In this document: positions 3,874 through 25,391 of the stretch, piece after piece | Position numbering within the stretch: position 1 is the first letter of the stretch | Layout: every line of letters begins with the position of its first letter | Position numbers and translations under genes: made by a program | Assembly (NCBI GenBank): GCA_018902915.1 | Contig: JAHIPS010000081.1 | Coordinates: 1-58,357 of the forward strand | Source of the DNA: Candidatus Omnitrophota bacterium | Lineage (GTDB): Bacteria; Omnitrophota; Gorgyraeia; Gorgyraeales; Gorgyraeaceae | Reading direction: 5' to 3' | Length of the DNA stretch: 58,357 nt | Notes under the pieces: model-generated | Told to the model about the DNA's origin: nothing | Seen by the model: only the letters and a program-made list of their open reading frames with translations | The model's database searches: none

Positions 3874-3882
3874 ATAGGTTAT

Positions 3883-5552: not shown

Positions 5553-5580
5553 TTGACAGGTTTTTTATTTCTGCTATAAT
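5553..5580 (+). promoter_or_regulatory. sigma70-type promoter of fur-feoAB (TTGACA-16 nt-TATAAT)
   Basis: TTGACA at 5553-5558 and TATAAT at 5575-5580, both exact consensus hexamers. Confidence 0.6.
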
Positions 5581-5606
5581 TGATATTGAAGTTCAATTTC
5601 AATTAT
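5576..5606. promoter_or_regulatory. 31-nt near-perfect palindrome overlapping the -10 element; candidate Fur box
   Basis: ATAATTGATATTGAAGTTCAATTTCAATTAT has 14 of 15 arm positions complementary. It is AT-rich with ATAAT/ATTAT hexamers, like Fur operators. Confidence 0.55.
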
Positions 5607-5620
5607 AGGGGGGGCGCGAT

Positions 5621-6046
5621 ATGGCGAGCGCATTACAGGTCTTTGTCGACTACCTCAGAAAAAAACATCTTAAATTAACAGACCAGCGAAACGCGATCTT
5701 GAATGTCTTTTTGAAGACAGAGCGCCACTTGAGCGTTGATGACCTTTATGATATTGTGAGAAAAAAGGATTCAAGTATTGGCCATGCAACTGTATTCAGG
5801 GCATTAAAGCTTTTATCTGAGGCAGGTATTGCCAAAGAGGTAAATCTCGGAGATGGCAAGACCAGGTATGAGCATAAATATGGGCATGAGCATCATGATC
5901 ATCTTGTCTGTCTTGAATGCGGCAGATTTATCGAGGCAGTGGATTCAAAGATAGAGAGACTTCAGGAAGAATTGTGTAAGAGGCATGGATTTGTAGCACA
6001 GCAACACAAAATGGAGATATTCGGGATCTGCAAGAAGTGTAGATAG
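5621..6046 (+). CDS. fur: Fur family metal-uptake regulator
   Basis: 141 aa. Winged-helix N-terminus, HEHHDHLVCLECG...CKKC metal sites, and feoAB immediately downstream. Confidence 0.85.
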   Translation: MASALQVFVDYLRKKHLKLTDQRNAILNVFLKTERHLSVDDLYDIVRKKDSSIGHATVFRALKLLSEAGIAKEVNLGDGKTRYEHKYGHEHHDHLVCLECGRFIEAVDSKIERLQEELCKRHGFVAQQHKMEIFGICKKCR

Positions 6047-6054
6047 GGGGAAGA

Positions 6055-6291
6055 ATGGTAGTGGATTTGACTCAGATGAAGCCAGATGAGACTGGTATTA
6101 TAAAGGAGCTATGCGGAGGGTGTGATTTTACAAAAAGAGTCCAGGGCATAGGTGTAAGGCCTGGCAAAAGGATAAGAAAGGTAAGTTCTCATTTCTGGCG
6201 CGGGCCGCAGACTGTCGAGGTAGACAATATGCGCGTAGCTATTGGATGGGGCATGGCCAAGAAGATTTTTATAGAGGTAGAGAGAGAATGA
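6055..6291 (+). CDS. feoA: ferrous iron transport protein A
   Basis: 78-aa SH3-like FeoA pattern (LTQMKPDETGIIKEL...GIGVRPGKRI). Its stop overlaps the feoB start (ATGA). Confidence 0.85.
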   Translation: MVVDLTQMKPDETGIIKELCGGCDFTKRVQGIGVRPGKRIRKVSSHFWRGPQTVEVDNMRVAIGWGMAKKIFIEVERE

Positions 6292-7997: not shown

Positions 7998-8017
7998 ACA
8001 TTTTTTTAATTTTTCCC

Positions 8018-8045
8018 TTGACATCCCTAGGTTATATGTTATACT
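8018..8045 (+). promoter_or_regulatory. candidate promoter TTGACA-16 nt-TATACT upstream of the sulfur operon; a second candidate TTGACA-16 nt-TAATAT lies at 8087-8114
   Basis: Hexamers read directly. A 16-nt imperfect inverted repeat (8046-8061 / 8070-8085, core CTACTAAT / ATTAGTAG) lies between the two. Confidence 0.45.
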
Positions 8046-8126
8046 TCTAATTACTACTAATATGATTAGATTAGTAGAGATTAAAGTTGACAAGCATGAT
8101 TGGAATAGTAATATAAAGGGGAAAGC

Positions 8127-8347
8127 ATGGAACATCCAAAGAGATCACTTGCAAAGACAGTAACCTGGCGCGTAATAGCTTTTGTGGTAACTATAGTCGC
8201 TGTTTATATCTATAGCAAGGATATAAAGGAGTCTCTTGTTGTTGGGATAAGCGCAAATGTCGTAAAGATTTTTTGTATTATGCACATGAACGAGTCTGGA
8301 ACAGGGTGAAATTCGGTAGAATTAAAGCCCCAGACTACCAGATATAA
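8127..8347 (+). pseudogene. DUF2061 membrane protein, frame-shifted at a T6 run (8269-8274)
   Basis: Frame 0 gives RSLAKTVTWRVIAFVVT... then terminates. After the T6 run, the shifted frame reads LYYAHERVWNRVKFG, the canonical DUF2061 C-terminus, ending at TAA 8345-8347. One extra T would restore the frame. Confidence 0.6.
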
Positions 8348-8362
8348 TCAGAAGGGGGAGTT

Positions 8363-9088
8363 ATGAGTTTATTAGAGCCACAGGAAGACTTAAAGGTATT
8401 AGTAGAGACATTGAACTTCAAACAAAAGGTCGATCGTTCACTACAGCTTATAAAGGAAGGCTATGATAAATACGGAGACGGTTTTGTAGTAGCCAATAGC
8501 CTTGGCAAGGATTCTGTTGCAGTTTGGCATCTTGCAAAACGCGTAGATCCGAAAATACGAGGGTTTATCGTAACTACCAGGTTTAAACCCAAAGAGACGG
8601 TCAAGTTTATGAATGAAGAGGTGAGAAAATATCCTGAGCTTAAGGTTTATAAAAACGATGCGAAGATACCAGATAAGCTATATGAGACAGATCCGAACAA
8701 ATGCTGCGATATATTAAAGGTCGAGCCTGTTAAGCACGCAGTTGAAGAGATGGGAGTTACGTGCTGGGTAACAGGCCTTCGCTGCACAGAGGGTCGCACC
8801 AGGACAGATTTTAAAGAGGTCGAAGAGCGCGATAAAGGATTAATAAAATTAAACCCTATTCTCATATGGAAAGAACGCGAGGTCTGGCAATATCTGGCCT
8901 TATATGGTGTAAAGGTTAATCCTCTATATACTGAAGGTTACCGCTCTCTTGGATGCGCGCCTTGCACTAAGATCACCAATGAGGATAATGAACGTGCAGG
9001 ACGATGGATAGGCACGAGTAAATGTGGAGGCGAATGCGGTATTCATACACGGCCTTTGAAGGTAAACGTTAACGGAGACGGCATCTAA
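8363..9088 (+). CDS. cysH: phosphoadenosine/adenosine phosphosulfate reductase (Fe-S, APS-type features)
   Basis: PAPS-reductase fold (NSLGKDS, TGLRCTEGRTR), cluster cysteines KCCDILK and LGCAPCT, and a C-terminal ECGIH. Confidence 0.85.
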   Translation: MSLLEPQEDLKVLVETLNFKQKVDRSLQLIKEGYDKYGDGFVVANSLGKDSVAVWHLAKRVDPKIRGFIVTTRFKPKETVKFMNEEVRKYPELKVYKNDAKIPDKLYETDPNKCCDILKVEPVKHAVEEMGVTCWVTGLRCTEGRTRTDFKEVEERDKGLIKLNPILIWKEREVWQYLALYGVKVNPLYTEGYRSLGCAPCTKITNEDNERAGRWIGTSKCGGECGIHTRPLKVNVNGDGI

Positions 9089-10054
9089 GTGGTTATTACG
9101 CTGGTATTAATCATAGTCTCTGTTTTTGTGGCATTAAATATGGGGGCGAGCGGTTTTTCAGTTTCTTTTACTCCCTCATATGGCAGCCGTTTGCTGAAAA
9201 AGTCCAGGGCAGTTGTTCTTTATGGACTTTGTGTTTTTGCCGGTGGGTTGCTCATAGGGCCGAGGGTTGTAAGTACCCTGGTCAATAAGATCTCGCTAGC
9301 GCAGCTTAACCCATATTCCGGTCTTTTGATCTTGTTTTCGGCAGGGGCCATGATGTTTTTAAGTAACATGCTGAAAATTCCGCAGTCCACGAGTTTTGTA
9401 ACTGTGGCGAGTTTTCTGGGGGCGGGCTTATATTACGGAAAGGTAAACTGGCATACGGTTTCAAAGATTATAATCGTAGCAGCTGTTTTTTCAGCCCTTT
9501 CGTTTATAATCACGTATCTTATTAAAAGAAAGATCTACCCGCCGCACAGGGGCAACCTGCATCTTTATGAGAAGTTTCATATTCACAGGAATAAATTTAA
9601 AAATTTTATAATCTGGACTGATATGTATTCGGCCTTTGGGATAGGCACGAATAATGTCGCAAATGTTGTGGCTCCCCTGGTAGGTTCATTGGGCATAAGC
9701 CCGTTTTTAGCCCTTGGATTGTCTGCTCCTCTTTTTGGGTTGGGGGCATATTTCTTTGGAGAGAGGGTCTTGAAGACAGTGTCCAGGGACATAGTGCCGA
9801 TCGGTGAAATGTCAGCGGCCATTGTTTCATCGATCACAGCGACCTTTGTCATTATCGCGTCGTTATTAGGATTACCTGCGCCTTATGTCCAGTTTACTAC
9901 TTTTTCAGTACTTGCGATAAGTTCTGTCAAAGACGGCACAAGGCATACAGCAGGAAAATCTGTTTTTAAAAGGATAATATCCGCATGGATATGCGTGCCC
10001 GTAGCCACAGTTTTTTTGAGTTTTTTATTACACTTATTTTTTATTAAAAGGTAA
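9089..10054 (+). CDS. PiT/PHO4-family anion permease (sulfate uptake inferred from context)
   Basis: 321 aa, polytopic, with PiT-like repeats (NMGASG..., GTNNVANVVAPL). GTG start abuts the cysH stop. Confidence 0.75.
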   Translation: MVITLVLIIVSVFVALNMGASGFSVSFTPSYGSRLLKKSRAVVLYGLCVFAGGLLIGPRVVSTLVNKISLAQLNPYSGLLILFSAGAMMFLSNMLKIPQSTSFVTVASFLGAGLYYGKVNWHTVSKIIIVAAVFSALSFIITYLIKRKIYPPHRGNLHLYEKFHIHRNKFKNFIIWTDMYSAFGIGTNNVANVVAPLVGSLGISPFLALGLSAPLFGLGAYFFGERVLKTVSRDIVPIGEMSAAIVSSITATFVIIASLLGLPAPYVQFTTFSVLAISSVKDGTRHTAGKSVFKRIISAWICVPVATVFLSFLLHLFFIKR

Positions 10055-10055
10055 C

Positions 10056-10454
10056 ATGATTTATATAAATAGAGATCTTAGAAAGGTGCTTATAGAACAC
10101 TCTAAGGATGAATTTCCGAATGAGGCGTGCGGTCTTTTGGCTGGAAAAGATAACAGAGTCGAGAGGATTTATGGAATGAGAAATACCGATAAGAGCGCAA
10201 CGTCATTTTTTATGGACCCGCAGGAACAGCTGAAGGTCATGAAAGAGATGCGCGCTTCTGGCCTTGATTTTATAGGCGTATATCACTCTCATCCTGAGAC
10301 AAAGGCATATCCTTCAGCTCACGATGTTGAGCTTGCATTTTATCCTGAAGTTTCGTATGTAATTGTCTCATTAAAGGATGGAGATAATCCAGATATATGT
10401 TCATTTAAGATTGTAGAAGGGAAGATCACAAAAGAGGAAGTGAGAGTCGAATGA
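10056..10454 (+). CDS. JAMM/MPN+ metalloprotease (Mec/HcyD/QbsD-like)
   Basis: NEACG plus HSHPETKAYPSAHD, which is E...HxH-x7-S-x2-D. Confidence 0.85.
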   Translation: MIYINRDLRKVLIEHSKDEFPNEACGLLAGKDNRVERIYGMRNTDKSATSFFMDPQEQLKVMKEMRASGLDFIGVYHSHPETKAYPSAHDVELAFYPEVSYVIVSLKDGDNPDICSFKIVEGKITKEEVRVE

Positions 10455-11485
10455 GTTTTGTAGTAGTTGGCACAAATCACAGATATAGCCATATTGAGCT
10501 AAGAGAGGAAATATCTTTCTCAAAGAGAGGGCTCCAGGATGCCTTTAATTTCTTGAGAGAGACAGGTGTCTTGAAGTCCAGCGTTATCCTTTCTACCTGC
10601 AACAGGGTAGAGATATATGCTTCTACAGGTACGGCTGAGTCTGGAATACACCAGATAAAGGATTTTCTCTCTAGATTTTACGAGATCAATGGCAAAGACC
10701 TCTGGCCTTACCTTTATATATATAGGGATGAAGACGCCTTAAGGCATTTATTCAGGGTCGCATCAGGCTTGGATTCCCTGATCTTGGGTGAATCGCAGAT
10801 CTTGGGTCAGGTGAACTCTGCATTTCATGAGTCAGGAAAGAATGGCTTTGTAGATCCTTCTTTAGGAGAGATTTTTAATTCTGCGATCTCATCAGCAGGA
10901 AAGGTACATTTACAAACCAGCATATCTGAAGGGAAGGTGTCTATAGGGAGCGTGGCTGTAGATTTTATAAAGGAAAGAATAGGAAGTTTTTTAAGTAAAA
11001 ATATCTTAATTATAGGCGTTGGCAAGGTTACAGAATTGGTTTTGAAGTATCTGGAGAAAGAAGGCAAAAACGTAGTTTTTATTTCTAATAGGACTTTTGA
11101 ACGGGCTCAGTCTCTGGCTCGTCAGATTGGCGCAAAGGCGGTTAAATTTGACAATTTAAAGGAGTATTTAAGTAAAGCAGATGTAGTCATCACAGCAACA
11201 AAGAGCCCGCATTTTATTATTAATAAACAGATTATAGAAGAAGCTGTCAGTCAAAAACGCTTACTAATTGTAGATCTGGCTCTGCCAAGAGATGTCGATC
11301 CTCGGATAAAAGAGATAGATAGGATAGAATTATTCGATATAGAGGACTTAACGAAAGTTATTCAGAGGAATAGAGATAAGAAGAAACATGAGGCTCTTAA
11401 GGCCGAGCAGATTATAGAAGACGAGGTACAGAGATTATGCCAGGAACTGTCAGGGTTGGGACAAGAAAGAGCCCTCTTGCGCTGA
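10451..11485 (+). CDS. hemA: glutamyl-tRNA reductase (short C-terminus)
   Basis: VVGTNHR, active-site TCNRVEIY and the GVGKV Rossmann motif. It ends 49 nt inside the next gene. Confidence 0.85.
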   Translation: MSFVVVGTNHRYSHIELREEISFSKRGLQDAFNFLRETGVLKSSVILSTCNRVEIYASTGTAESGIHQIKDFLSRFYEINGKDLWPYLYIYRDEDALRHLFRVASGLDSLILGESQILGQVNSAFHESGKNGFVDPSLGEIFNSAISSAGKVHLQTSISEGKVSIGSVAVDFIKERIGSFLSKNILIIGVGKVTELVLKYLEKEGKNVVFISNRTFERAQSLARQIGAKAVKFDNLKEYLSKADVVITATKSPHFIINKQIIEEAVSQKRLLIVDLALPRDVDPRIKEIDRIELFDIEDLTKVIQRNRDKKKHEALKAEQIIEDEVQRLCQELSGLGQERALLR

Positions 11486-13509
11486 AACAAGTGGAAGAAG
11501 TTCTAGTTGGGCTAAAAAAATTTCATCCTGATGTAGGATTTGATATTGTTACCATAGATACATATGGAGATATGGATAAAAAAACACCTATATCAAATAT
11601 AGAAGGAACGGATTTTTTTACAAGAGAAATAGACCATGCGCTTTTAAGAGACGAGATTGATATTGCTGTTCACAGCGCTAAGGATTTACCTGACAACTTA
11701 AAAGAGGGGATCAAGATAGCGCTTATTACTGAATCAATCGATCCATACGACTGTTTAGTTTCAAAATCCGGGTTAAAACTTAGCGAACTTCCTCCAGGGG
11801 CAAAGATAGGGACGAGCAGTTCGCGCCGCAAGACACAATTGAAGAAATACAGGAGTGATTTTCAGATCGTAGATATACGAGGAAATATTGAAGAACGTTT
11901 AAGATTACTTGATGATCGCGAGCGACGAGTGACGAACGACGAGCGACGAATAGATGCCATTGTTATTGCAGCTTGTGCGCTGTTGAGATTAGGTTTAAAA
12001 CAACGCATAACCGAAAGATTGCCTTTTGAGATTCTAAGGCCACATCCTTTACAGGGTTCGTTGGCAGTAGTAACAAGAAAGGACAAGGTTGATTTGATAA
12101 ATCTCGTAAAGACAAAGAAGGTCTATATTGTTGGTGCAGGGCCAGGAAGGCCGGATTTAATAAGTGTGAGAGGATTGCGCATTCTTAAAGAGGCCGATGT
12201 AGTCATATATGATTATCTTGTCGATAAGGCCCTTTTGGATGAGACTAAGCCAGAATCTGAGCTCATATCTTGCGGCAAGCTTGGCAAGAATAGATTTTCA
12301 GGAAAGTCTATCGAGGCACAGGCAAGGATAAGTGAGCTAATTGTTGAGAAGGCTAAAGAGGGAAGGCGTGTTGTAAGACTTAAGAATGGTGATGCAACTA
12401 TTTTTAGCCGCCTAAGAGAAGAGCTCGAGGCATTAACTAGAAATAAGATAGAATTTGAAATAGTGCCTGGCGTTACAGCTGCAAGCGCAGCAGCAGGTTT
12501 TAGCGGCATACCACTTACAGATAGGCATGATTCATCCAGCGTTATTTTTTTAACAGGACACGAATCTGATGATAAGAGAAAAACTAGTATAGATTGGAAT
12601 AGAGTGGCTGATTTTGAATCCTTGGTTATATACATGGGTGTTGATAGTATCTCAAAAATAGTCTCAGAGTTAATAAAATCAGGAAAATCCGGCAACACTC
12701 CAGCAGCCGTAGTATCAAAGGCAACAGACATAAACCAGAAAACAGTCAGGGGCAAGTTGAAAAATATTGCTGAAAAGGTAAGGACAGGAGATATTGAGCC
12801 GCCAGCGATATTTATTATTGGAAAAACCGCAGAGCTGGAAAAGGATTTTAACTGGTTCAGGAAGAATAAAAGGGTTTTATTTACAGGTCTGTCTAAGGAG
12901 AGATTCTTTACAGACGGGACCTATTACCACCTGCCTTTGATTGACATAGGGCCACTCGATGACTATAAGGAATTTGACAGCCATTTGAAGAAAATCAGAC
13001 AATTTGACTGGATAGTATTTGCAAGCCGCTATGGCGTGGAGTATTTCTTCGGAAGACTTAAAAAAATTGGGCATGACTCGAGAATACTTAACAACATAAA
13101 AATCGCAGGTGTAGGAAATTCTACAAAGGCAAGGCTTCTTGATTTTGGCATTTCAGCGGATCTGGTGCCGCAAAAGGAATCTTCAGAAGGGTTGATCGAG
13201 GAGTTTGAGAAGATAGATATCAGAGGGAAGAACATATTTTTGCCCCGCTCTGATATATCTGATAAAGGCTTGGAAAAGGCCTTTCAGAAACTCGGAGCAA
13301 TAATAGCCACTTCGTCCGCATATAGAAATAGAATTTCCAGAGATTTGCCTGATTTGGACCTGACCAGCTTTGATGAGGTCATGTTTACGAGCCCTTCTAC
13401 AGTAAGGAATTTTAGAAAAAGATATGGAAGATTGCCCGAGCATGTCAAGGCAAAGTGCATAGGGGATGTGACTTTGAGGGAGGCAAAGAGATGCCGGTTA
13501 ATAGATTAA
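11437..13509 (+). CDS. trifunctional fusion: porphobilinogen deaminase domains 1-2 (no domain 3), uroporphyrinogen-III C-methyltransferase and uroporphyrinogen-III synthase
   Basis: aa 1-about 220: RVGTRKSPLALKQ...HSAKDLP...GTSSSRRKTQL...QGSLAVV (HemC). aa about 225-470: VYIVGAGPGRPDL...VRLKNGDATIF...VPGVTAASAAA (CobA/SUMT). aa about 475-690: HemD-like. Confidence 0.8.
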   Translation: MPGTVRVGTRKSPLALKQVEEVLVGLKKFHPDVGFDIVTIDTYGDMDKKTPISNIEGTDFFTREIDHALLRDEIDIAVHSAKDLPDNLKEGIKIALITESIDPYDCLVSKSGLKLSELPPGAKIGTSSSRRKTQLKKYRSDFQIVDIRGNIEERLRLLDDRERRVTNDERRIDAIVIAACALLRLGLKQRITERLPFEILRPHPLQGSLAVVTRKDKVDLINLVKTKKVYIVGAGPGRPDLISVRGLRILKEADVVIYDYLVDKALLDETKPESELISCGKLGKNRFSGKSIEAQARISELIVEKAKEGRRVVRLKNGDATIFSRLREELEALTRNKIEFEIVPGVTAASAAAGFSGIPLTDRHDSSSVIFLTGHESDDKRKTSIDWNRVADFESLVIYMGVDSISKIVSELIKSGKSGNTPAAVVSKATDINQKTVRGKLKNIAEKVRTGDIEPPAIFIIGKTAELEKDFNWFRKNKRVLFTGLSKERFFTDGTYYHLPLIDIGPLDDYKEFDSHLKKIRQFDWIVFASRYGVEYFFGRLKKIGHDSRILNNIKIAGVGNSTKARLLDFGISADLVPQKESSEGLIEEFEKIDIRGKNIFLPRSDISDKGLEKAFQKLGAIIATSSAYRNRISRDLPDLDLTSFDEVMFTSPSTVRNFRKRYGRLPEHVKAKCIGDVTLREAKRCRLID
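11921..11948 (+). repeat. heptanucleotide tandem repeat AGCGACG|AGTGACG|AACGACG|AGCGACG inside hemC
   Basis: Four consecutive 7-mers read directly. They encode part of the insertion ...DDRERRVTNDERR... in the conserved RGNI..RL...DAIV segment. Confidence 0.85.
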
Positions 13510-14507
13510 GAAGACTCAGGAGGAACAGTGCTATAAGAGACTGGGTCAGCGAGACTGTGCTAAGACCCAAGGATCTCATTTTGCCTTATTTTGTCATCGA
13601 TGGAAAGGGTGTTGATAGACCTATTAAATCTCTGCCGGAAGTTAGTCATCTATCGATTGACAAATTGCTCAAAGAAATAGCTAAGGTGGAAAAAAGAGGG
13701 ATAAGGTCTATTCTTTTGTTTGGAGTACCTAAGAAAAAGGACAAAATAGGATCTGAGGCGTATAATAAGGACGGCATTGTTCAAAGAGCGACAAAAGCAA
13801 TAAAGAAAGAATTCGAAGATTTGGTCGTAATAACAGATGTGTGTCTGTGTAGTTATACGTCTCACGGACATTGTGGTATCATTAAGGGACAAGGGACCCC
13901 ATACCACAAGGGTACGGAGCAGGCAAGTGACAAGAGACAAGGGTATATTATAGATAATGACAAGACTTTAAAGATTTTGGCGAAGATCGCTCTATCTCAT
14001 GCTGAAGCTGGTGCTGATCTAGTGGCGCCTTCAGCAATGATGGACGGACAGGTAATGTCAATAAGAGAAGGCTTAGACAAAAATGGATTTAAGGATATAG
14101 GGATAATGGCCTATGCAGCTAAATATGCGTCGAATTTTTATGGCCCTTTTAGAGAGGCATTAGATTCTGGTCCACACTTCGGAGACAGAAAGACCTATCA
14201 GATGGATTTTAGAAATTCAGACCAGGCCCTGAGAGAGATAGGCCATGATATTGAAGAGGGCGCTGATATTGTAATGGTAAAACCAGCCCTTTCATATCTG
14301 GATATTATTTATCGGGCAAAAGAGAAGTTTAATGTACCTGTAGCCGCGTATAATGTAAGCGGTGAATATGCGATGGTGAAGGCATATTCTCAGGGACAGG
14401 GGATTGAAAAAGAGTTGGCTCTGGAGATTTTGACGAGCATAAAGCGTGCTGGGGCGGATTTTATAATTACATACTGGGCAAAAGAGGCAGCGGGATGGTT
14501 AAACTGA
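13491..14507 (+). CDS. hemB: porphobilinogen synthase (Zn-type)
   Basis: DVCLCSYTSHGHCG Zn site and IVMVKPAL. ATG 13491 has GGGAGG 8 nt upstream (the ORF track starts at 13455). Confidence 0.9.
   Translation: MPVNRLRRLRRNSAIRDWVSETVLRPKDLILPYFVIDGKGVDRPIKSLPEVSHLSIDKLLKEIAKVEKRGIRSILLFGVPKKKDKIGSEAYNKDGIVQRATKAIKKEFEDLVVITDVCLCSYTSHGHCGIIKGQGTPYHKGTEQASDKRQGYIIDNDKTLKILAKIALSHAEAGADLVAPSAMMDGQVMSIREGLDKNGFKDIGIMAYAAKYASNFYGPFREALDSGPHFGDRKTYQMDFRNSDQALREIGHDIEEGADIVMVKPALSYLDIIYRAKEKFNVPVAAYNVSGEYAMVKAYSQGQGIEKELALEILTSIKRAGADFIITYWAKEAAGWLN
13926..13939 (+). repeat. two degenerate heptamers AGTGACA|AGAGACA within an approximately 15-aa insertion in hemB
   Basis: The insertion KGQGTPYHKGTEQASDKRQG lies between GHCGII and IDNDKT. 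The DNA also carries ACAAGGG three times (13880-13945). Confidence 0.7.
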
Positions 14508-15745
14508 GCGACAAGCGACAAGCGACAAGCGACAAGGAGCTTTTTAGCGAAGCCAGACGATTTATTCCTGGGGGCGTAAATAGTCCGGTGAGATCTTTTA
14601 AGGCTGTTGGGGGAAGTCCTGTCTTTATAAAGAAGGCCTACGGGGATAAGATTTATAGTGAATGCGGCGAAGAGTTTATTGATTACTGTCTTTCCTGGGG
14701 CGCTTTGATCTTAGGGCATACTCACAGGGAAGTAATCAAGGCTATAGAGAGCTCATTAAAGAACGGAACAAGTTTTGGCGCAGCTACAAGATTGGAGACA
14801 GAATTGGCAATGCTTATTGCAGAGGCTGTTCCTTCAATCGAACAGATTAGATTAACAAATTCAGGCACTGAGGCAGTTATGGGCGCGGTCAGACTTGCAA
14901 GGGCATACACTGGGAAAAATAAGATTATAAAATTTCAAGGCTCGTATCATGGGCACGCAGATTATCTTTTGGATTGCACAGGCGTGCCAGAGGACTTTAA
15001 GAGACATACAATTGTAGTTCCGTATAACGATATAGGCGCTGTTTTAGAAGCAGCTGAGCTGCACAGGGAAGATTTAGCTGCGATAATAGTTGAGCCAGTT
15101 TCCGGGAATTGCGGAGTGGTATTGTCAGACATTGGTTTTTTGCAGGGTTTGAGAAAGATCGCTGATAAATACAACACAGTTCTTATTTTCGATGAAGTTA
15201 TTACTGGATTCAGGGTTTCATACAGCGGCGCGCAGGGAATTTTTGGAATAAAAGCAGATATTACCTGCTTAGGTAAGGTTATAGGCGGGGGATTGCCGGT
15301 AGGCGCCTTTGGAGGAAGAAGGGAAATTATGGATCTTTTAGCGCCCGAAGGAGACGTCTATCAGGCAGGGACATTGTCAGGTAATCCAGTCGCGGTCACA
15401 GCCGGGATCACGACCTTGAAAATACTGAAAGAAATAAATCCATACCCAGATCTGGAAACCAAAACAAAGAAACTATGTGAAGGGATTATGGCGAGCGCTA
15501 AAAAATATGATATAAAGCTGAGGGCTAATTATATTAGTTCTATGTTTAGCATATTTTTTGGAGAAAATGGACAGGATAAGGGATTATTTAAAAAGTTTTT
15601 CCACGGATTATTAAAAAGAGGTATTTATTTTTCACCATCTGGTTTTGAGGCAAATTTTTTGTCAACCGCGCATAGTAATGAAGATGTAAAGAAGACATTA
15701 GATGTGATCGATGAGACATTTGAAAGTTTAAGGAGGTCAGAATGA
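14495..15745 (+). CDS. hemL: glutamate-1-semialdehyde 2,1-aminomutase
   Basis: [10 protein letters not shown] and PLP-Lys region CLGKVIGGG. It overlaps the hemB stop by 13 nt. Confidence 0.9.
14507..14534 (+). repeat. perfect heptanucleotide tandem repeat (AGCGACA)x4 between the hemL start codon and its conserved N-terminus
   Basis: Read directly. It begins at the last base of the hemB stop codon and encodes [10 protein letters not shown]. Confidence 0.9.
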
Positions 15746-16875
15746 ATATTCTAATCAATGGTAAAAAAGAAGAGTTAAAAGATGTTGTTACAGTGGCTAA
15801 GCTTTTAGAGCAGAAAAAGATCAGACCTGAGGTCGTGACTGTAGAATTGAACGATAAGATCATAGAAAAGAGCAAATATAATGAAATCCAGCTCAAGGAC
15901 AATGACAGAGTGGAGTTTGTCTATTACATGGGAGGCGGATCCGGAAATAATTCCAAGCTGATGGAAAATGTCCTGGAGTCGATAGGCAATACGCCCATGG
16001 TGAAACTTAATAAGATTGTAACCGAAGATATGGCCCGCATATTCGCAAAACTCGAGTTTTTTAACCCAGGCAGCAGCGTCAAAGACAGGATATGCCTTTC
16101 TATGATCGAGGATGCTGAAAACAAGGGGCTTCTTTCCAAGGGTTCCACCATAATCGAGCCCACAAGCGGAAATACCGGGATAGGTCTTGCAATGATTTGT
16201 GCTGTCAAAGGCTATAAATGCATAATCACTATGCCCGAGACAATGAGTCTCGAGAGAATCTATATACTCAGGTCTTTCGGCGCCGAGGTCATTCTTACTT
16301 CGGGCGCAGAAGGCATGAAGGGCTCTATTAAAAAAGCTGAAGAGTTACTAAAGAAGACACCAGTGAGTTTTATGCCCCAGCAGTTCAAGAATAAGGCAAA
16401 TCCTGCTATTCATAGAGAGACAACGGCCAAAGAGATATTGGATAGCACTGATGGCAAAGTGGATGCGTTTGTTGCCGGCATAGGAACAGGGGGGACTATA
16501 ACAGGCGTAGGAGAAGTTTTAAAGAAACATAACCCTGATGTTAAGATAATAGGGGTCGAACCAGCATCGAGTGCTGTGTTGTCTGGAAAAGGACCTGGGC
16601 CGCATAAGATTCAGGGAATCGGCGCGGGATTTGTACCGGATGTTTTAAATCGTCAGGTAATCGATGAGATAATTCAGGTTAAGGACAGTGATGCTTTTAA
16701 AACCTCAAGGAGATTAGCCAGGGAAGAAGGATTGTTTGTCGGTATATCAGCAGGCGCAGCAGCATGGGCAGCTATAAAGGTGGCAAAAAATCTTGACAAA
16801 GAAAAAAGGGTGGTCGTGATTTTTCCTGATACTGGTGAGAGATATTTTTCAATGCAGCAGTATTTCGAGGCATAG
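15742..16875 (+). CDS. ThiS-like sulfur-carrier domain fused to cysteine synthase (CysK/CysM family)
   Basis: aa 1-66 form a ThiS-like domain ending [10 protein letters not shown]. The linker is SGNNSKL. A CysK-type domain follows ([12 protein letters not shown] Lys in [21 protein letters not shown]). There is no stop between the domains. Confidence 0.8.
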
Positions 16876-16886
16876 GGAGCAATTAT

Positions 16887-17744
16887 ATGACTGAATATAA
16901 TATAAAAGAACTCAAGAGTGGTGGGTTGATGAAGCAGAAAGAAAAGGATATATTTTCTCTTCGTCTGCGTATAGTTGGAGGTTTTGTCAAATCCGAACAG
17001 CTGATCAAGCTTTCGGAGATAGCCGATAGATTTGGTAAAGGATATATACATTTGACCACAAGACAAGGCATTGAGATCCCGAACGTAAACATCAAAGACT
17101 TTGAGAAAGTTAAAAAGGAATTAAACGAAGCTGAGCTTCAGATGGGCGCATGTGGCCAGAGGGTAAGGACAGTAACTGCATGCCAGGGAAAGGAATGCAG
17201 TCATGGCTTAATAGATTGTCTAATGCTCGCAAGAGAGATCGATCATAAATATTTTGGCATAGGCGGCCACCCTCATAAATTTAAGATAGGGATTACTGGC
17301 TGTCCAAATGCATGTATTAAACCTCATGAAAATGACTTGGGCATATTAGGCAGATTAAAGAAAAGGTTCGTAAGAGAAAAGTGTAACTATTGCGGGCTCT
17401 GCGCAGAGATCTGTCCAGTAGGCGCAATAGAGGTGGATAAGGACGATGAGAAGATAGTATTTAATGCAGAGAAATGCATTGGATGCGGAGATTGTGTGTA
17501 TTCCTGCCCGACTGATGCGTGGCAAAAAAGGCAGGAGGGCTATACTATTTTTGTCGGTGGCAAGATGGGAAAATTCCCGAAGCTCGGCATAAAGGCCTTT
17601 GACTTTATTGAGACAAAAGAAAAGGTCTTTGAGGTCATAGAAAAGACATTAGAGTTTTATAAAAAGTTCGGCAATAAAGGCGAGAGATTCAGGGAGACAT
17701 TGGACAGAGTAGGAGTGGAGAAATACAAGGAGACGGTTTCATGA
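16887..17744 (+). CDS. small assimilatory-type sulfite reductase (siroheme/4Fe-4S with inserted ferredoxin domain)
   Basis: TTRQGIEIPNV, TACQGKECSHG...TGCPNACIKPHENDLG, and ferredoxin motifs CNYCGLCAEICP and CIGCGDCVYSCP. Confidence 0.75.
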   Translation: MTEYNIKELKSGGLMKQKEKDIFSLRLRIVGGFVKSEQLIKLSEIADRFGKGYIHLTTRQGIEIPNVNIKDFEKVKKELNEAELQMGACGQRVRTVTACQGKECSHGLIDCLMLAREIDHKYFGIGGHPHKFKIGITGCPNACIKPHENDLGILGRLKKRFVREKCNYCGLCAEICPVGAIEVDKDDEKIVFNAEKCIGCGDCVYSCPTDAWQKRQEGYTIFVGGKMGKFPKLGIKAFDFIETKEKVFEVIEKTLEFYKKFGNKGERFRETLDRVGVEKYKETVS

Positions 17745-17977
17745 GTGATGCAGTGCCAAACGAAGTCTTGAACTTGGAGAATATAGCGTGTCCGAATAAT
17801 TTTGTCAGGACAAAATTGAAACTTGAGGAGATGGAAACTGGTCAGACACTGGAGGTAATTTTGGATGATGGCGAGCCCATCAGAAATGTGCCTCGAGCCG
17901 TAAAGGAAGAAGGCCACGAGATTCTAAAGGCAGAAAAGATAGATAATAAATGGAAGATATTGATTAAAAAAATATGA
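17741..17977 (+). CDS. TusA/SirA-family sulfurtransferase
   Basis: 78 aa with the conserved Cys-Pro (NIACPNNFVRTKLKLEEM) and ...LEVILDDGEP. Its ATGA overlaps the sulfite reductase stop. Confidence 0.8.
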   Translation: MSDAVPNEVLNLENIACPNNFVRTKLKLEEMETGQTLEVILDDGEPIRNVPRAVKEEGHEILKAEKIDNKWKILIKKI

Positions 17978-17987
17978 GGTGATTACA

Positions 17988-19214
17988 ATGAGTTATGTAA
18001 AAGGATTAAAGTGCAGAGAATGCGGCAGGGAGTTTCCTAAAGAGGCCCTCTATGTATGCGAATATTGCTTTGGGCCATTAGAGGTAGACTATGATTATGA
18101 GAATATAAAGAAAAAGCTGACCAGGCAGGTTATAGAATCCCGACCCAAGAATCTCTGGCGCTACAGAGAGCTCCTGCCTATTGATGGAGAGCCTACTGAC
18201 GGCTTGAAATCAGGGTTTACTCCTTTGATAAGGGCAAGGAATCTGGAAAAGGTGCTCGGTGTAAAAGAGCTTTACTTAAAGGACGACTCTGTAAATCATC
18301 CCACGCTTTCCTTTAAGGATAGAGTGGTTGCAGTCGCCCTTTCAAAGGCGAAGGAGTTCGGCTTTAAGACTGTTGCATGCGCCTCAACAGGAAACCTTGC
18401 AAATTCTGTAGCAGCCCAGTCTGCTGTAGCTGGCCTGGAAAGATTTATATTTATACCAGCTGACCTTGAATCAGGCAAGGTTATAGGCACATTGATTTAT
18501 AATCCTACTCTTATAGCAGTAGAGGGGAATTATGACCAGGTAAACAGGCTCTGTTCAGAGGTTGCAACAAAATATAAGTGGGCATTTGTGAATATAAATA
18601 TAAGGCCTTATTATGCAGAGGGTTCAAAGACATATGGTTATGAGATTGCAGAGCAGTTAGGCTGGAGGACTCCTAAGCATATAATTGTCCCTTGCGCAGG
18701 AGGTTCTCTTATTACAAAGATCTGGAAGGGACTAAAGGAATTTAAAAATTTAGGACTGATAAATAAGGTTGATACTAAGATTTATGCAGCCCAGGCAACT
18801 GGCTGTGCGCCAATTGTTACAGCGATAAAGGAGAATTCTGAGATCATAAAGCCTATCAAGCCCAATACCATTGCCAAATCACTCGCAATAGGAAATCCTG
18901 CTGATGGCATGTATGCTGCTGCGACTGTAAAAGACTCTGGAGGCACTGCCGAAGATGTTACAGATGATGAAATCGTAGAGGCAATAAAGCTTTTGGCAGT
19001 TACAGAAGGTGTATTTACTGAGACAGCAGGAGGCGTGACACTCGGAGTTACAAAGAAACTCATCGAACAGGGAAAGATCCCCAAAGACGAAGCAATAGTC
19101 GTGTGCATAACAGGAAATGGCTTAAAGACACAGGAAGCAGTGGCTAAAAAAATAGGAAGACCTATAAAGATAAAACCAAATATTGCTTCATTTGAAGAAC
19201 ATGTGAAGCTATAA
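17988..19214 (+). CDS. threonine synthase-like PLP enzyme with N-terminal zinc ribbon
   Basis: CRECG...CEYC ribbon and PLP-Lys motif [19 protein letters not shown] lies before ATG 17988. Confidence 0.8.
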
Positions 19215-19224
19215 AGGAGGTAAT

Positions 19225-19506
19225 ATGTCAGTTAAGGTAAGGATACCAACGCCTTTACAGAAACACACGAATAATCAAGGAGAGGTCAGTGCGGATGCCA
19301 CGAATATAAGGAATCTCATCGAGACCCTTGAGAAGAATTTTCCAGGCATTAAAGAGAGGATCTGCGATGAGAGTGGCAATATCCGCAGATTTATCAATAT
19401 CTATGTCAATGAAGAGGATGTGCGGTTTTTGCAAAAAGACGAAACCCCTCTTAAGGATGGCGATGAGGTCTCAATAATTCCAGCAATAGCAGGAGGCAGT
19501 CAATGA
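19225..19506 (+). CDS. CysO/MoaD-like sulfur-carrier protein with C-terminal GG followed by Ser-Gln
   Basis: 93 aa. [11 protein letters not shown]...[14 protein letters not shown]...[15 protein letters not shown] closely parallels what I recall of mycobacterial CysO. Confidence 0.85.
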
Positions 19507-20333
19507 AACTTACAGATGCGCAGATAGAGCGCTATTCAAGACAATTGATATTGCCTAACATAGGCGGCAAGGGCCAGGAAAAGATTTTAAACGCAAAGGT
19601 CCTGGTGATCGGCGCAGGAGGACTTGGTTCGCCTGCGTCGTTATATCTTGCGTCAGCTGGCGTGGGAAAGATCGGCATTGTGGATTCTGACAAGGTCGAG
19701 GTAAACAATCTCCAGAGACAGATAGTGCATTCCACAAGTACTGTTGGGAAGCCAAAGGTAGATTCTGCAAAAGAAAGACTCAATGCAATAAATCCCGAGA
19801 TAGAGATAGTGCCTTTCAATCTACGGCTAACCTCTGCCAATATCATGGACATCATAAAGGACTATGATATTGTCGTGGATGGCTCTGATAATTTTCCGAC
19901 GAGGTTTCTTGTAAATGACGCATGTGTTCTGGCTAAGAAGCCTCTTTCGCACGGCGGCATATTCAGGTTTGACGGCCAGGCAATTACAATCTTGCCAGGT
20001 GAAAGTGCATGCTACAGGTGTCTTTTTCCTGAGCCGCCTCCGCCAGGCCTTGTTCCGAGCTGTCAGGAGGCAGGCATATTAGGTGTAGTTGCTGGGATAA
20101 TAGGGACTATCCAGGCAAACGAGGTATTGAAATATATACTGAAAACAGGGGATCTTTTGACAGGAAGATTATTGGTGTTTAACGCGCTGGATTCGAGCTT
20201 CAGGCAGGTCAAGGTCCCTAAGGATCCGAATTGTCCGGTATGCGGCAAGAATCCGACTGTTACAGAATTGATAGATTATGAACAATTCTGTCAAGTGAAA
20301 CCCAGGTCCGCCGCAGGCGGATCTGATGGCTGA
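19503..20333 (+). CDS. MoeB/ThiF/HesA-family adenylyltransferase (E1-like), no rhodanese domain
   Basis: [12 protein letters not shown] and a CxxC...CPVC Zn site. The C-terminal tail [11 protein letters not shown] is encoded by a hairpin repeat. Confidence 0.85.
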
Positions 20334-20339
20334 ACTTGT

Positions 20340-20448
20340 CCCCCCTGTTTTCTTTGTTTTCATCCCTAGAAATCGCGAATGCGATTTCAGGGATTAAATC
20401 CCGGAAATTCTCCGAATTTCACGGGACAAAGAAAACAAAGAAGGGGGG
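20340..20448. repeat. C6...G6 nested-hairpin element, copy A (outer stem plus two internal hairpins)
   Basis: C6 at 20340-20345 and G6 at 20443-20448. The outer stem TGTTTTCTTTGT/ACAAAGAAAACA is 12 bp. The inner hairpins are at 20364-20392 and 20400-20425. Confidence 0.85.
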
Positions 20449-20545
20449 ATAATTCGCACCTTCATAGAAGTTAACCAGAGAAGATGTAGTTACGAAAATC
20501 AAAGATTTTCATAACTACAGTGCTCATTAAAAAAAGGAGGAGGAC

Positions 20546-20785
20546 ATGCCAAAACTCATTGTACATCTAATATATCCACAGAAATTAATCAAAGAACCTG
20601 TAATCTACACCATGGCTAAAAAATATGATGTAATCCCGAATATCAGAAGGGCCAAGGTCACAGAGGAAATAGGCGAGATGACACTGGAACTCAACGGCAC
20701 AAAGGAAAACCTTGAGGCCGGCAGAAAGTATTTAGAAAAGACAGGAGTCAAAGTCGAACCAGTCGTAGGAGATATTGTTGAATAA
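20546..20785 (+). CDS. NIL-domain protein
   Basis: 79 aa resembling the MetN C-terminal NIL domain (IVHLIYPQKLIKEPVIY...ANIRRAKV-like pattern). Strong AGGAGGAGG RBS. Confidence 0.65.
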   Translation: MPKLIVHLIYPQKLIKEPVIYTMAKKYDVIPNIRRAKVTEEIGEMTLELNGTKENLEAGRKYLEKTGVKVEPVVGDIVE

Positions 20786-21707
20786 GAGAAAATTGTTGTT
20801 AGGTTGTTTTATTTTTTTAGCGGGAATCTCTTTTGTCGGTTGCAACCGCATGGAAAGCCTGGAGAAGATAGATCTAAGCGATACGGTAGAGTTAGAAGAG
20901 ATAAAATCCCTTCAAAGGCCTGAGATTAATATATGCGTAGGCTCTATGATTACGCCAGAAGAAGGCTACGCATATTACAAGAGACTGCTGGATTATATCG
21001 GGCAGAAACTGCACCTGAAAATAAATTTTGTTGAAAAAAGGACTTATAGAGAAGTGAACTCTTCTTTAAAAAATGGCAATATTGATGTGGCATTTGTATG
21101 TGGCGGGCCGTATGTAATGGGTCATGATGAGTTTGGCTTGGAACTTTTAACTGCTCCAGTGGTAAATGGCAAGCCATTATATTACTCTTATGTTATTGTT
21201 GGAAAGGACAGTAAGATTAATGACCTTCATGGATTAAAGGGAAAGACATTTGCCTTTGTGGACCCGATATCCAATACAGGCAAATTGATCCCTACCTATA
21301 TGTTATATGAATTAGGAGAGACCCCTCAGAGTTTTTTCAAGGAATACTCGTATACCTATGGCCATGACAGATCAATCAAGGCCGTGGCTCAGGGCATAGT
21401 TAATGGGGCAGCTGTTGACAGTCTTATATGGGACTATATGGATAAAAATGGCAGCATCTATACCCAAAAGACAAGTATAATCAAGGTTTCCGAGCCCTAT
21501 GGTATTCCTCCGGTAGTGGTGCGGCCAGGGCTGGATGAGGGCCTAAAAGCAAAAATAAAAGATATTCTGTTGAATATGCATAATAACGAAGAAGGAAAAG
21601 AGATACTTAAGGGCATGTTCATTGATAGATTCATCGAGATAGACGATTCCAGCTATGATACAATAAGACACGTCAGGGAGAGTGTTATAAAAAGAGATCC
21701 TGATTAG
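20775..21707 (+). CDS. PhnD-like (phosphate/phosphonate-type) periplasmic binding lipoprotein
   Basis: TTG start, lipobox FVGC, and PhnD-like GNIDVAFVCGGPYV and FAFVDPISNTG. Confidence 0.7.
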   Translation: MLNKRKLLLGCFIFLAGISFVGCNRMESLEKIDLSDTVELEEIKSLQRPEINICVGSMITPEEGYAYYKRLLDYIGQKLHLKINFVEKRTYREVNSSLKNGNIDVAFVCGGPYVMGHDEFGLELLTAPVVNGKPLYYSYVIVGKDSKINDLHGLKGKTFAFVDPISNTGKLIPTYMLYELGETPQSFFKEYSYTYGHDRSIKAVAQGIVNGAAVDSLIWDYMDKNGSIYTQKTSIIKVSEPYGIPPVVVRPGLDEGLKAKIKDILLNMHNNEEGKEILKGMFIDRFIEIDDSSYDTIRHVRESVIKRDPD

Positions 21708-21716
21708 AGGTAACTT

Positions 21717-23072: not shown

Positions 23073-23074
23073 AT

Positions 23075-25389: not shown

Positions 25390-25391
25390 CC

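Follow-up and report, generated by a model that had tools for sequence, protein, structure and literature searches.

Positions 8127-20785 of the + strand of a 58,357-nt contig from a Candidatus Omnitrophota bacterium (JAHIPS010000081.1; the whole stretch is hereafter called the window) hold 15 genes, all in one direction, that bring together the reduction of adenosine 5'-phosphosulfate (APS) and sulfite, the tetrapyrrole trunk pathway as far as precorrin-2, and two modules in which a ubiquitin-like carrier protein is paired with a pyridoxal 5'-phosphate (PLP) enzyme. We propose that these genes form an operon that assimilates oxidised sulfur into cysteine and homocysteine by way of protein thiocarboxylates and has its own supply of siroheme precursor, a reading to which we give a probability of about 0.68. 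A first-pass annotation of the window had joined these functions in the same way, and its gene order was reproduced exactly by Pfam and NCBIfam scans of the + strand open reading frames (ORFs) in 8127-20785: DUF2061, CysH, PiT permease, JAMM protease, HemA, HemC-CobA-HemD, HemB, HemL, ThiS1-CysK, sulfite reductase (Sir), TusA, ThrC-like enzyme, ThiS2, E1-like adenylyltransferase, and NIL. The functional joining stands, but several of the individual identities are corrected below.

The genes are closely packed, with junction gaps, in order, of 20 (after correction of a frameshift), 0, 1, -4, -49, -55, -13, -4, 11, -4, 1, 10, -4, and 212 nt. Thirteen of the 14 junctions therefore overlap or measure at most 20 nt, the exception being the gap between the E1 gene and NIL; the first-pass annotation had most junctions overlapping or under 15 nt. 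The ATGA overlaps reported at 15742 and 17741 are present, further ones occur at 10451 and 19503, and such 4-nt overlaps stand at both edges of the hem block. However, the whole window is co-directional (+), with a median gap of 10 nt outside the cluster against -2 nt inside it. Since same-strand packing is not special in this window, the case for a functional unit rests on conservation in independent genomes.

Conservation of the cluster in Omnitrophota

Window proteins were mapped onto 86 fetched loci (labelled L001-L086), and called genes were read along six long contigs of relatives. The ThiS-CysK protein of the window has no identical entry in the assembly collection and thousands of relatives; among the best 120 homologue clusters (73-80% identity), those that are named belong mostly to Candidatus Omnitrophota or Omnitrophica, and ThiS plus PALP domains are present in 120 of 120. 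A scan with one genome per species gave the same picture. The order of the window, CysH-(PiT)-JAMM-hemA-hemC-cobA/hemD-hemB-hemL-ThiS-CysK-Sir-TusA-ThrC-like-ThiS2-E1-NIL, recurs apart from small insertions in L001/L002, L003, L084, and L085, the last of which has a sulfate-type ABC transporter at the operon start in place of CysH. Other loci keep parts of it. L086 retains only cobA/hemD-hemB-hemL of the hem genes in the operon, L006 and L010 read JAMM-(sirC)-hemB-hemL-ThiS-CysK, and the partial loci L004, L005, and L035 have hem genes directly 5' of ThiS-CysK. L011 shows CysH-PiT-CysK-sirC-hemA-hemC-cobA, and L009 a different interleaving, hemA-hemC-ThiS-MetY-E1-JAMM-Sir::TusA-cobA/hemD-hemB-hemL-CysK-Rrf2. 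The sulfur genes of L007 and L015 are without any hem genes, and there JAMM, ThiS, and CysK adjoin.

Sequence 5' of (ThiS-)CysK is available in 13 loci, and tetrapyrrole genes are found there in 11 (the window, L001, L003, L004, L005, L006, L010, L035, L084, L085, and L086, but not L007 or L015), with variable hem content. In the loci compared, CobA is always included, and protoporphyrin-branch and cobalamin-branch (cbi) genes never are. Comparative synteny thus strongly supports the link between hem and sulfur genes, the hem block lying between JAMM and ThiS-CysK in most relatives. The embedding of a C5 pathway in a sulfur operon had been called unusual, which is correct relative to model organisms, but it is a conserved trait of the lineage and not a peculiarity of the window. 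The majority of these loci belong to Omnitrophota, in which the architecture is conserved and represents a real gene cluster, not a one-off.

The genes do not diverge evenly. Identity to L001 is 88-92% for CysH, Sir, the ThrC-like enzyme, E1, and NIL, and 69-78% for the hem genes, JAMM, and ThiS-CysK, while Sir, TusA, and PiT share only 41-51% identity with their counterparts in L003. This mosaic, as judged from the sequences, suggests that non-orthologous cassettes were swapped in within a fixed gene order. Two of the hem blocks carry insertions of foreign genes: inositol-1-phosphate synthase and CDP-alcohol transferase genes in L003 (3708-6150), and an MtrA/DUF4346 pterin-binding-type protein with a 153-aa ORF in L084 (7106-8703).

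The tetrapyrrole block

The block begins with a short-form glutamyl-tRNA reductase, HemA (10451-11485, +; GlutR_N plus Shikimate_DH), whose 344 aa match TIGR01035 at 2-336 of 416 and are missing the C-terminal dimerisation domain. HemA proteins of relatives are likewise short (343-350 aa). A SirC hidden in HemA was considered and rejected, the NAD_binding_7 match (32.5 bits) lying beneath that to Shikimate_DH (130.6 bits) as Rossmann-fold cross-similarity. HemA is followed by a HemC-CobA-HemD triple fusion of 690 aa (11437-13509, +; Porphobil_deam, TP_methylase, and HEM4), made up of HemC domains 1-2 (~11437-12111), CobA/SUMT (~12118-12864), and HemD (~12916-13494). The porphobilinogen synthase HemB (13455-14507, +; PF00490, 473.8 bits) likely starts at the ATG at 13491, to judge by the gene model of L001. 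The glutamate-1-semialdehyde aminomutase HemL (14495-15745, +; PF00202) completes the block, and its position between hemB and ThiS-CysK is conserved in relatives.

HemC aligns to residues 6-218 of the 312-aa 4mlq and has no Porphobil_deamC match; that is, domain 3 is missing. The cysteine of HemC domain 3 holds the dipyrromethane cofactor, and no conserved cysteine was found in the seven short HemCs compared (window, L001 5770-6432, L003, L009, L011, L084, and L085). The short form is nevertheless no oddity of this contig. Among the best 150 representatives from a library of 1.8 billion proteins it is widespread, with many examples of each of three kinds: HemC standing alone (212-240 aa), HemC as the N-terminal part of a 640-690-aa protein, and HemC at the very C-terminal end of a 560-740-aa protein. 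The second kind is consistent with the same fusion as in the window. In L001 a stop codon and a spacer of 16 nt interrupt what the window reads through in frame; an assembly artefact was rejected as the source of the triple fusion, given the clean in-frame junction and the many 640-690-aa representatives with N-terminal HemC. A literature search on truncated bacterial HemC returned nothing relevant. The claim of a complete C5 pathway therefore holds in that the genes to precorrin-2 are present, but HemC is without domain 3 and HemA without its dimerisation domain.

The rival explanation that survives best holds that the hem genes are the ordinary, sole tetrapyrrole trunk operon, nested here by chance, perhaps with a promoter of its own, and serving haem, cobalamin, or other products no less than siroheme; we consider this unlikely, though tenable. 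The order hemA-hemC-hemD-hemB-hemL is the classic hem-operon order, and close spacing on one strand is general in the window, as described above. Hem genes can also live elsewhere (in part in L086, wholly in L007), so that no extra siroheme-only copies are in evidence, a corrinoid/pterin-type gene stands within the hem block of L084, and some Omnitrophota have haem and cobalamin pathways (Seymour et al., PMC10066038). Nesting by chance is, however, hard to square with a JAMM/ThiS-CysK context that persists in 11 of the 13 informative loci while the hem content varies, or with L009, in which a different interleaving still pairs hem genes with sulfite reductase. The same can be said of the constant presence of CobA without protoporphyrin-branch or cbi genes, and of the ATGA overlaps at both borders of the block. 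Moreover, sirC lies in the same operon in two loci, L006 (JAMM-sirC-hemB-hemL) and L011, as a short SirC made up of NAD_binding_7 and Sirohm_synth_M.

In the siroheme-supplying operon that we prefer, the hem block is probably still the cell's only trunk pathway rather than a siroheme-only duplicate, since hem genes, as L086 and L007 demonstrate, can also be housed outside the operon. That the precursor genes share an operon with the enzyme that needs siroheme is supported by the gene-order data, and the sirC genes of L006 and L011 suggest that siroheme is what the pathway is meant to yield.

The ThrC-like enzyme and the NIL protein

The PLP enzyme at 17979-19214 (+; PF00291; 411 aa) is a ThrC homologue with an N-terminal CxxC...CxxC zinc ribbon. 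Solved threonine synthases match it at E ~1e-57 but only from residue ~55, and the N-terminal ribbon is absent from them. The ThrC-like gene is followed by ThiS2 in the window and in eight loci (L001, L003, L006, L007, L015, L035, L084, and L086). For Streptomyces albulus, GapMind 2026 and PMC12172450 describe a route in which O-phosphohomoserine is converted to homocysteine by MetM, a ThrC homologue, at the expense of the thiocarboxylated MoaD-like carrier MetO; Mec matures the carrier and MoeZ serves as the ligase. The window has no Cys_Met_Meta_PP protein, and a tblastn search of it with the MetY of L009 gave no match. Since MetY is absent and a ThrC homologue is followed by a MoaD-like carrier, the MetM/MetO route fits better than the MetY route of Wolinella. 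By this analogy, we infer that the ThrC-like enzyme is a MetM-like homocysteine synthase; no MetM-specific NCBIfam model matched it.

A simpler view is that the protein is a plain threonine synthase and that ThiS2, E1, and NIL are unrelated neighbours. The threonine synthase models TIGR00260 and NF006050 are indeed passed, and the solved threonine synthases match. We nonetheless find this view improbable: the gene is always in a sulfur operon and directly 5' of a MoaD-like carrier (in the window and eight other loci), its association with NIL extends to Chloroflexi, its zinc ribbon is not in the solved threonine synthases, and MetM is itself a ThrC homologue that is noted to be routinely misannotated as threonine synthase. 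In L085, from a metagenome-assembled genome named 'bacterium Unc6', the ThrC-like gene (12253-12938) is without residues 39-232 and has a short perfect palindrome in their place, a deletion that is a pseudogene or an assembly artefact.

NIL (20546-20785, +; PF09383) is a protein of 79 aa without cysteine. In all complete Omnitrophota loci its gene comes after that of E1. In two Chloroflexi loci, L041 and L049, it is the immediate 3' neighbour of the ThrC-like gene, without an intervening carrier gene. The importer MetN binds methionine through a NIL domain. NIL-ferredoxin proteins are required in a different homocysteine pathway (PMC5764234). On the strength of these two parallels, NIL might tentatively be regarded as a partner that binds a ligand or exerts feedback on the ThrC-like module, an assignment that we make with low confidence. 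In L084 (1-935), genes for an ApbE-like and a NIL-ferredoxin protein stand immediately 5' of the operon; both proteins belong to the DUF39 pathway to homocysteine, suggesting that this genome has a choice of two routes to that amino acid.

Carrier proteins, E1, and the JAMM protease

The first carrier, ThiS1, is translated as part of a ThiS1-CysK fusion (15742-16875, +; PF02597 plus PF00291). ThiS1 itself comprises aa 1-66 (15742-15939), fills the TIGR01683 thiS model end to end, and ends in MGGG, with an 11-aa linker to the LESIGNTP motif of CysK. The PLP domain, read as an O-acetylserine sulfhydrylase of the CysK type, passes TIGR01139 cysK (468.1 bits against a cutoff of 350.95) and stays below the cutoffs of the cysM models (305 and 294 bits against 394 and 413; 305.3 against 394.2 for TIGR01138). 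A pattern match for the junction failed for 80 of the best 120 clusters, four of which (P0018, P0025, P0092, and P0109) still gave a junction, leaving 76 for which none was read; in the 44 clusters with a junction read, GGG is present, mostly as VYYMGGG, with substitutions before GGG and a variable linker. Where ThiS1 is a standalone ORF (L007, L009, L010, L015, and L027), it extends from 1 to ~20 residues past GGG.

The second carrier, ThiS2 (19225-19506, +; PF02597, with TIGR01687 above cutoff), is MoaD/CysO/MetO-like and ends in AGG-SQ. In four relatives with a visible stop codon, ThiS2 ends in AGG plus 1-2 residues, and in L015 (14175-14717) it is fused to NIL in a protein of 180 aa. All of these carrier forms need cleavage, because adenylation requires a free C-terminal glycine. 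A precedent is MoaX, the fused MoaD-MoaE of M. tuberculosis, for which a cut after Gly-Gly is required for function (PMC4326299). The obvious candidate for the cleavage here, from its sequence, is the JAMM/JAB metalloprotease of the operon (10056-10454, +; PF14464, Prok-JAB), a Mec/HcyD-like protein with an intact E...HxH-x7-S-x2-D motif, a match to the NCBIfam desampylase model below cutoff, and 2kks and PfJAMM1 (5lda) as relatives in the Protein Data Bank. In the lineage of the window the hem block sits inserted between the protease gene and the carrier gene.

Both carriers would be activated by the single E1-like adenylyltransferase (19503-20333, +; NF004281 MoeB above cutoff). This protein of 276 aa is of the MoeB/ThiF/UbaA type, and PF00899 (ThiF) is its only Pfam domain, so that a rhodanese domain is missing. 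TusA, a sulfur carrier with its cysteine in IACPNN, is encoded at 17741-17977 (+; PF01206). In the 'type 4e' neighbourhoods of Iyer, Burroughs, and Aravind (2006, PMC1779556), TusA (SirA) was proposed to stand in for rhodanese, and an E1 without rhodanese together with TusA is exactly the pattern of the present cluster.

We also considered that the carriers and E1 might be the cell's ThiS, MoaD, and MoeB, working in the synthesis of thiamine and molybdenum cofactor and in tRNA thiolation, placed beside cysteine synthesis for no other reason than that cysteine supplies their sulfur, with PLP enzymes that use free sulfide. To our knowledge, Thi4-type thiazole synthesis makes no use of ThiS. ThiS1 passes the thiS equivalog, ThiS2 moaD_arch, and E1 a MoeB model; the window has MoaA, MoaC, MogA, MoeA, and MobA and no match to MoaD or MoaE; and Thi4, ThiM, and ThiE come after NIL in L084 and L086. 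Iyer et al. (PMC1779556), moreover, proposed cysteine as the sulfur source to account for associations of thiamine and cysteine genes. This explanation is decidedly improbable all the same. ThiS1 is fused to CysK in all 120 clusters listed, with GGG in the 44 just described, neither ThiG nor MoaE is nearby, and C-terminal extensions with a dedicated JAMM mark amino-acid systems and are absent from thiamine and molybdenum cofactor operons (PMC1779556). An E1 shared by several carriers is compatible with the synthesis of cysteine and homocysteine on protein carriers, and mycobacterial MoeZR is reported to serve several carriers (PMC3227635).

Predicted reduction of sulfate and sulfite

CysH (8363-9088, +; PF01507 and NF002537; motifs CC, CxxC, and ECGIH) has as its best solved relatives 7lhr and the P. 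aeruginosa APS reductase 2goy, with which the CC and CapC cysteines align, and is read from its sequence as an assimilatory APS reductase of the iron-sulfur type. The PiT-family permease that follows (9089-10054, +; PF01384) is like the CysP sulfate permease of B. subtilis, its sole NCBIfam match being NF053884 SulfPermCysPBac at 193.8 bits, below the cutoff of 400.

In the 58-kb window, of which all ORFs of at least 100 aa and five shorter ones were annotated, none of the annotated ORFs has an ATP sulfurylase, APS kinase, SirC/SirB/CbiX, or CysE domain, and the SirC proteins of relatives gave no match to the window by tblastn. The first-pass annotation was thus correct for the window in reporting ATP sulfurylase, APS kinase, and precorrin-2 dehydrogenase/ferrochelatase as not seen. 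The missing APS kinase is not a gap, however, since the CC...CxxC motif of CysH is that of an APS reductase, with which APS kinase is not expected. We infer that ATP sulfurylase must be encoded outside the window.

The sulfite reductase (16887-17744, +; 285 aa; NIR_SIR_ferr, NIR_SIR, and Fer4) is a small siroheme enzyme with an inserted 2x[4Fe-4S] ferredoxin domain. Its best solved relative is Fsr, an F420-dependent sulfite reductase (7np8, residues 342-611, E 9e-48), with which ACQGKEC/ACPGGGNC, GCPNAC/GCPNGC, and both CxxCxxCxxxC motifs align. Fusions of the type Sir::TusA, with TusA C-terminal to a large sulfite reductase, occur in L009 (3993-6326), L035 (2333-4681), and L086 (11230-13548) as proteins of 772-782 aa, and therefore tie sulfite reductase and TusA functionally. 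That the small reductase serves energy metabolism or sulfite detoxification, in the manner of Fsr in methanogens, is very improbable, for although its closest solved relative is the Fsr of methanogens, COG2221 ('DsrA') proteins of 23 Omnitrophota genomes have been listed as putatively dissimilatory (Seymour et al., PMC10066038), and Hdr-like and Psr/Ttr-like genes lie downstream in the window, the gene stands between CysK and TusA in an operon with an assimilatory CysH, has none of the partners DsrB, DsrC, and DsrMK nearby, and is replaced in relatives by non-orthologous sulfite reductases, including Sir::TusA, in an unchanged context.

Proposed pathway and points that weigh against it

In the pathway that we propose, sulfate would be imported by the CysP-like PiT permease and converted to APS by an ATP sulfurylase encoded elsewhere. 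CysH would reduce APS to sulfite with no need for APS kinase, and the siroheme-requiring, Fsr-C-like reductase would reduce sulfite to sulfide. E1 is predicted to adenylate the C-terminal glycine of both ubiquitin-like carriers, with attack of sulfide on the acyl-adenylate yielding carrier-COSH, and TusA probably relays sulfur in substitution for the missing rhodanese domain. ThiS1, translated as a CysK fusion, would be freed by a JAMM cut after GGG; its thiocarboxylate would attack the aminoacrylate of CysK, and following an S-to-N acyl shift JAMM would release cysteine, as in the Mec/CysO/CysM system of M. tuberculosis. The same JAMM would trim the SQ tail of ThiS2, whose thiocarboxylate the ThrC-like enzyme would use to convert O-phosphohomoserine to homocysteine, as MetM does with MetO, and the cysteine-free NIL may be a ligand-binding partner or regulator of this step. 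HemA, HemL, HemB, HemC, HemD, and CobA would lead to precorrin-2, with precorrin-2 dehydrogenase and ferrochelatase encoded elsewhere. Since the hem genes are in the operon, synthesis of the siroheme precursor would be switched on together with its consumer. Transcription would start from the promoter-like site at 8018-8045 and would probably be repressed by way of the palindrome at 8052-8077, perhaps by an Rrf2 protein (see below).

Several observations weigh against this reading. The 58-kb window encodes no ATP sulfurylase, SirC/ferrochelatase, CysE, or homoserine kinase, and the pathway therefore cannot be closed from the window sequence alone. The activity of HemC is uncertain, since it is without domain 3 and without the conserved cysteine. 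Anaerobic cobalamin synthesis and siroheme-dependent haem synthesis start from precorrin-2 as well; because this intermediate feeds other tetrapyrroles too, the dedication of the hem block to siroheme is plausible and not stronger than that. ThiS1 meets the thiS (thiamine) equivalog, while ThiS2 and E1 meet MoaD and MoeB models, and ThiS1 is joined to an ordinary CysK domain, whereas the experimentally shown user of a thiocarboxylate is CysM. The ThrC-like enzyme passes TIGR00260 (304.9 against 167.1 bits) and, barely, NF006050 (305.3 against 303). Finally, a 212-nt structured insert parts NIL from E1 in the genome of the window.

A bolder version of the proposal would have the sulfur of sulfite remain on protein carriers throughout, passing from the reductase to TusA and on to E1-activated carriers that come as precursor fusions, ThiS-CysK and in L015 ThiS-NIL, and that one JAMM both matures and recycles, and would make siroheme the main or only tetrapyrrole of the cell, formed under sulfur control in a minimal pathway with a HemC that has neither domain 3 nor the cofactor cysteine. 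We regard this version as rather unlikely. If true, maturation of the carriers by a single JAMM would mirror, in bacteria and in the service of amino-acid synthesis, the processing of ubiquitin precursors.

Comparison with known systems

The first-pass annotation had drawn a parallel with the M. tuberculosis CysO/CysM/Mec and Wolinella HcyS/HcyD/HcyF/MetY/Sir systems. Two thiocarboxylate modules are indeed present, but there is no MetY, the second module being of the MetM/MetO type, and the PLP enzyme of the first is CysK rather than CysM. The cluster resembles the type 4e neighbourhoods and their experimentally studied example, the Hcy system of Wolinella succinogenes, in its extended ThiS/MoaD-like carrier, JAB protease, E1 without rhodanese, and TusA, and in its genes for sulfite and (P)APS reductases. 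It differs from them in having a ThrC homologue in place of MetY (which the relative L009 has), in the absence of ATP sulfurylase and APS kinase from the cluster, and in the addition of a second, CysK-fused carrier, the NIL protein, and embedded tetrapyrrole genes. Tetrapyrrole genes are not mentioned in the survey of type 4e neighbourhoods, in which the word 'siroheme' has 0 occurrences (PMC1779556).

With the Mec-CysO-CysM system of M. tuberculosis the cluster shares the order protease-carrier-PLP enzyme, which is direct in L007 and L015 and interrupted by hem genes in the window, and by analogy the carrier thiocarboxylate would be the sulfur donor and JAMM would release cysteine. In contrast to that system, the PLP enzyme is of the CysK type, the carrier is of the ThiS type (66 aa) and translationally fused, and E1 lacks the rhodanese domain of MoeZR, with TusA present instead. 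The likeness to MetM/MetO of Streptomyces albulus (Hasebe et al., 2024, as described in GapMind 2026 and PMC12172450) lies in a ThrC homologue followed by a MoaD/ThiS carrier, with a Mec-type protease and an E1. S. albulus metM is reported to have an upstream S-adenosylmethionine (SAM) riboswitch, whereas the window has none, and the window differs further in its E1 without rhodanese and its conserved NIL partner.

The cysH operon of B. subtilis reads cysH-cysP-sat-cysC-sumT-sirB-sirC. The window shares with it cysH followed by a PiT-family cysP, and a SUMT for siroheme in a sulfate-assimilation operon. It differs in having the whole trunk from glutamyl-tRNA but no sirB, sirC, sat, or cysC, and, if the analogies above are correct, in passing sulfide to protein carriers. 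The sulfite reductase is like the C-terminal half of Fsr (7np8, 7npa) and the small Dsr-like COG2221 proteins in its siroheme-[4Fe-4S] cysteines and two-cluster ferredoxin insert; unlike Fsr, it lacks the F420H2-dehydrogenase half, and it stands in an assimilatory context. MoaX offers a parallel in that a ubiquitin-like carrier and its partner enzyme are made as one polypeptide with Gly-Gly inside it, but in the window the partner is CysK and not MoaE, and the predicted cleavage has a dedicated JAMM in the same operon.

The type 4e neighbourhood, Mec/CysO/CysM, MetM/MetO, the cysH-cysP operon of B. subtilis, Fsr-like reductases, and the cleavage of fused MoaD are thus already known, and analogy with them gives the proposed mechanism a good footing. 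The novelty lies in the union of both thiocarboxylate modules in one operon with a single E1 and a single JAMM, the fusion of a carrier to a CysK-type enzyme, the conserved NIL partner, and the nesting of a whole C5 trunk in the operon. Our literature search found no paper naming thiocarboxylate, uroporphyrinogen, and sulfite reductase together, and the main survey of Omnitrophota does not mention siroheme or sulfate assimilation or discuss the operon (PMC10066038). The cluster offers a concrete model for the synthesis of cysteine and methionine in a large uncultured phylum and a clear case of an operon that unites an enzyme with the entire pathway to the precursor of its cofactor. It also argues that the small 'DsrA/COG2221' reductases of Omnitrophota may be assimilatory and not respiratory, and, if the analogy holds, would extend the MetM/MetO route to a new phylum and add to it a conserved NIL partner. 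The questions that it raises are whether JAMM cuts the ThiS-CysK precursor, whether a standard CysK can use a protein thiocarboxylate, and in what way a HemC could work without domain 3.

Boundaries, regulation, and neighbouring sequences

Upstream of the operon, a promoter-like site (8018-8045, +) consists of TTGACA, a 16-nt spacer, and TATACT, with an upstream TG, and agrees with the consensus at 11 of 12 positions. TTGACA...TATAAT also lies 5' of DUF2061 in L001, where the gene upstream is a different one. Just after the -10 box is an operator-like palindrome, CTACTAAT-ATGATTAG-ATTAGTAG (8-8-8; 8052-8077), that is unique in the window, is expected 0 times by chance, and is conserved in L001 (~3250-3280). 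Rrf2 genes flank the operon in L086, L011, L009, and L015, and none is found in the window. The palindrome is a putative repressor site, possibly for an Rrf2 protein. The first gene, DUF2061 (8127-8342, +; PF09834), encodes a small membrane protein and is frameshifted at a T-run (~8268-8273): frame 0 ends at 8309 and the other frame at 8342, both together match a 73-aa protein of L001, and the read-through end lies 20 nt 5' of CysH. The frameshift is either a homopolymer sequencing error or a pseudogene.

A division of the cluster by internal promoters or terminators, raised in the first-pass annotation as a possibility that would undo the unit, finds no support. The scan of 5000-24600 found 52 promoter-like sites against 45.5 ± 6.8 expected from shuffled sequence and 9 terminator-like sites against 13.5 ± 4.2, that is, no excess of either. 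Rfam gave no match at gathering threshold in the window, and no SAM riboswitch; control by a riboswitch or T-box was rejected, the only matches with E<=1 in 7900-21000 being two at chance level, to long non-coding RNA and microRNA models.

The 212-nt gap between E1 and NIL contains a palindromic element of 110 nt (20340-20449) of the repetitive extragenic palindrome or miniature inverted-repeat transposable element type, with a C6...G6 outer stem, three inner hairpins, and a folding energy of -89.7 kcal/mol (z -10.6). The element recurs at 52536-52621 with 71% identity, the two copies differing in each arm of the inner hairpins; related elements at 52645-52722 and 45993-46072 form a separate inverted pair, and no Rfam family matches the element. 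In L001 the E1-NIL gap is 3 nt and holds no such element, so that the 212-nt gap is an insertion and not an ancestral boundary. A regulatory RNA or operon boundary in the gap was rejected for the same reasons, the element being repeated and absent in L001, and because there is no + strand T-run terminator. Between the element and NIL (20486-20540), a hairpin is followed by GCTCATTAAAAAAAGGAGG, a motif that occurs once in the window; very similar leaders (hairpin plus GCTCATT(T)AAA...GGAGG) stand 5' of cysH in L011 (~1040-1100) and L001 (~3570-3635).

The stop of NIL overlaps the gene of a PhnD-like binding protein, which is followed by a HAMP-HisKA_3 kinase and a LuxR-type response regulator (20775-23728, +; gaps of -11, 9, and 2 nt). 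These genes may be co-transcribed with the operon but probably have a separate function and are not conserved with it, L001 keeping only a 64-aa remnant of the binding protein after NIL. Downstream of 23728, as far as 38630, are Hdr-like genes (CCG, HdrA-like, and MvhD) and an NrfD/4Fe-4S/molybdopterin oxidoreductase set, and the stretch 20775-38630 as a whole looks like a sulfur-compound respiration locus with its sensor. Sequence errors exist in the window, including at least one frameshift (that in DUF2061) and a split UbiA-family prenyltransferase, the N- and C-terminal halves of whose Pfam model are matched by separate ORFs (30500-30928 and 30949-31416); the split is a frameshift, a stop codon, or a sequencing error. 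Lastly, an inverted repeat at 3826-3874, between the endonuclease III and radical-SAM genes, has perfectly matched arms of 23 nt and a loop of 3 nt.

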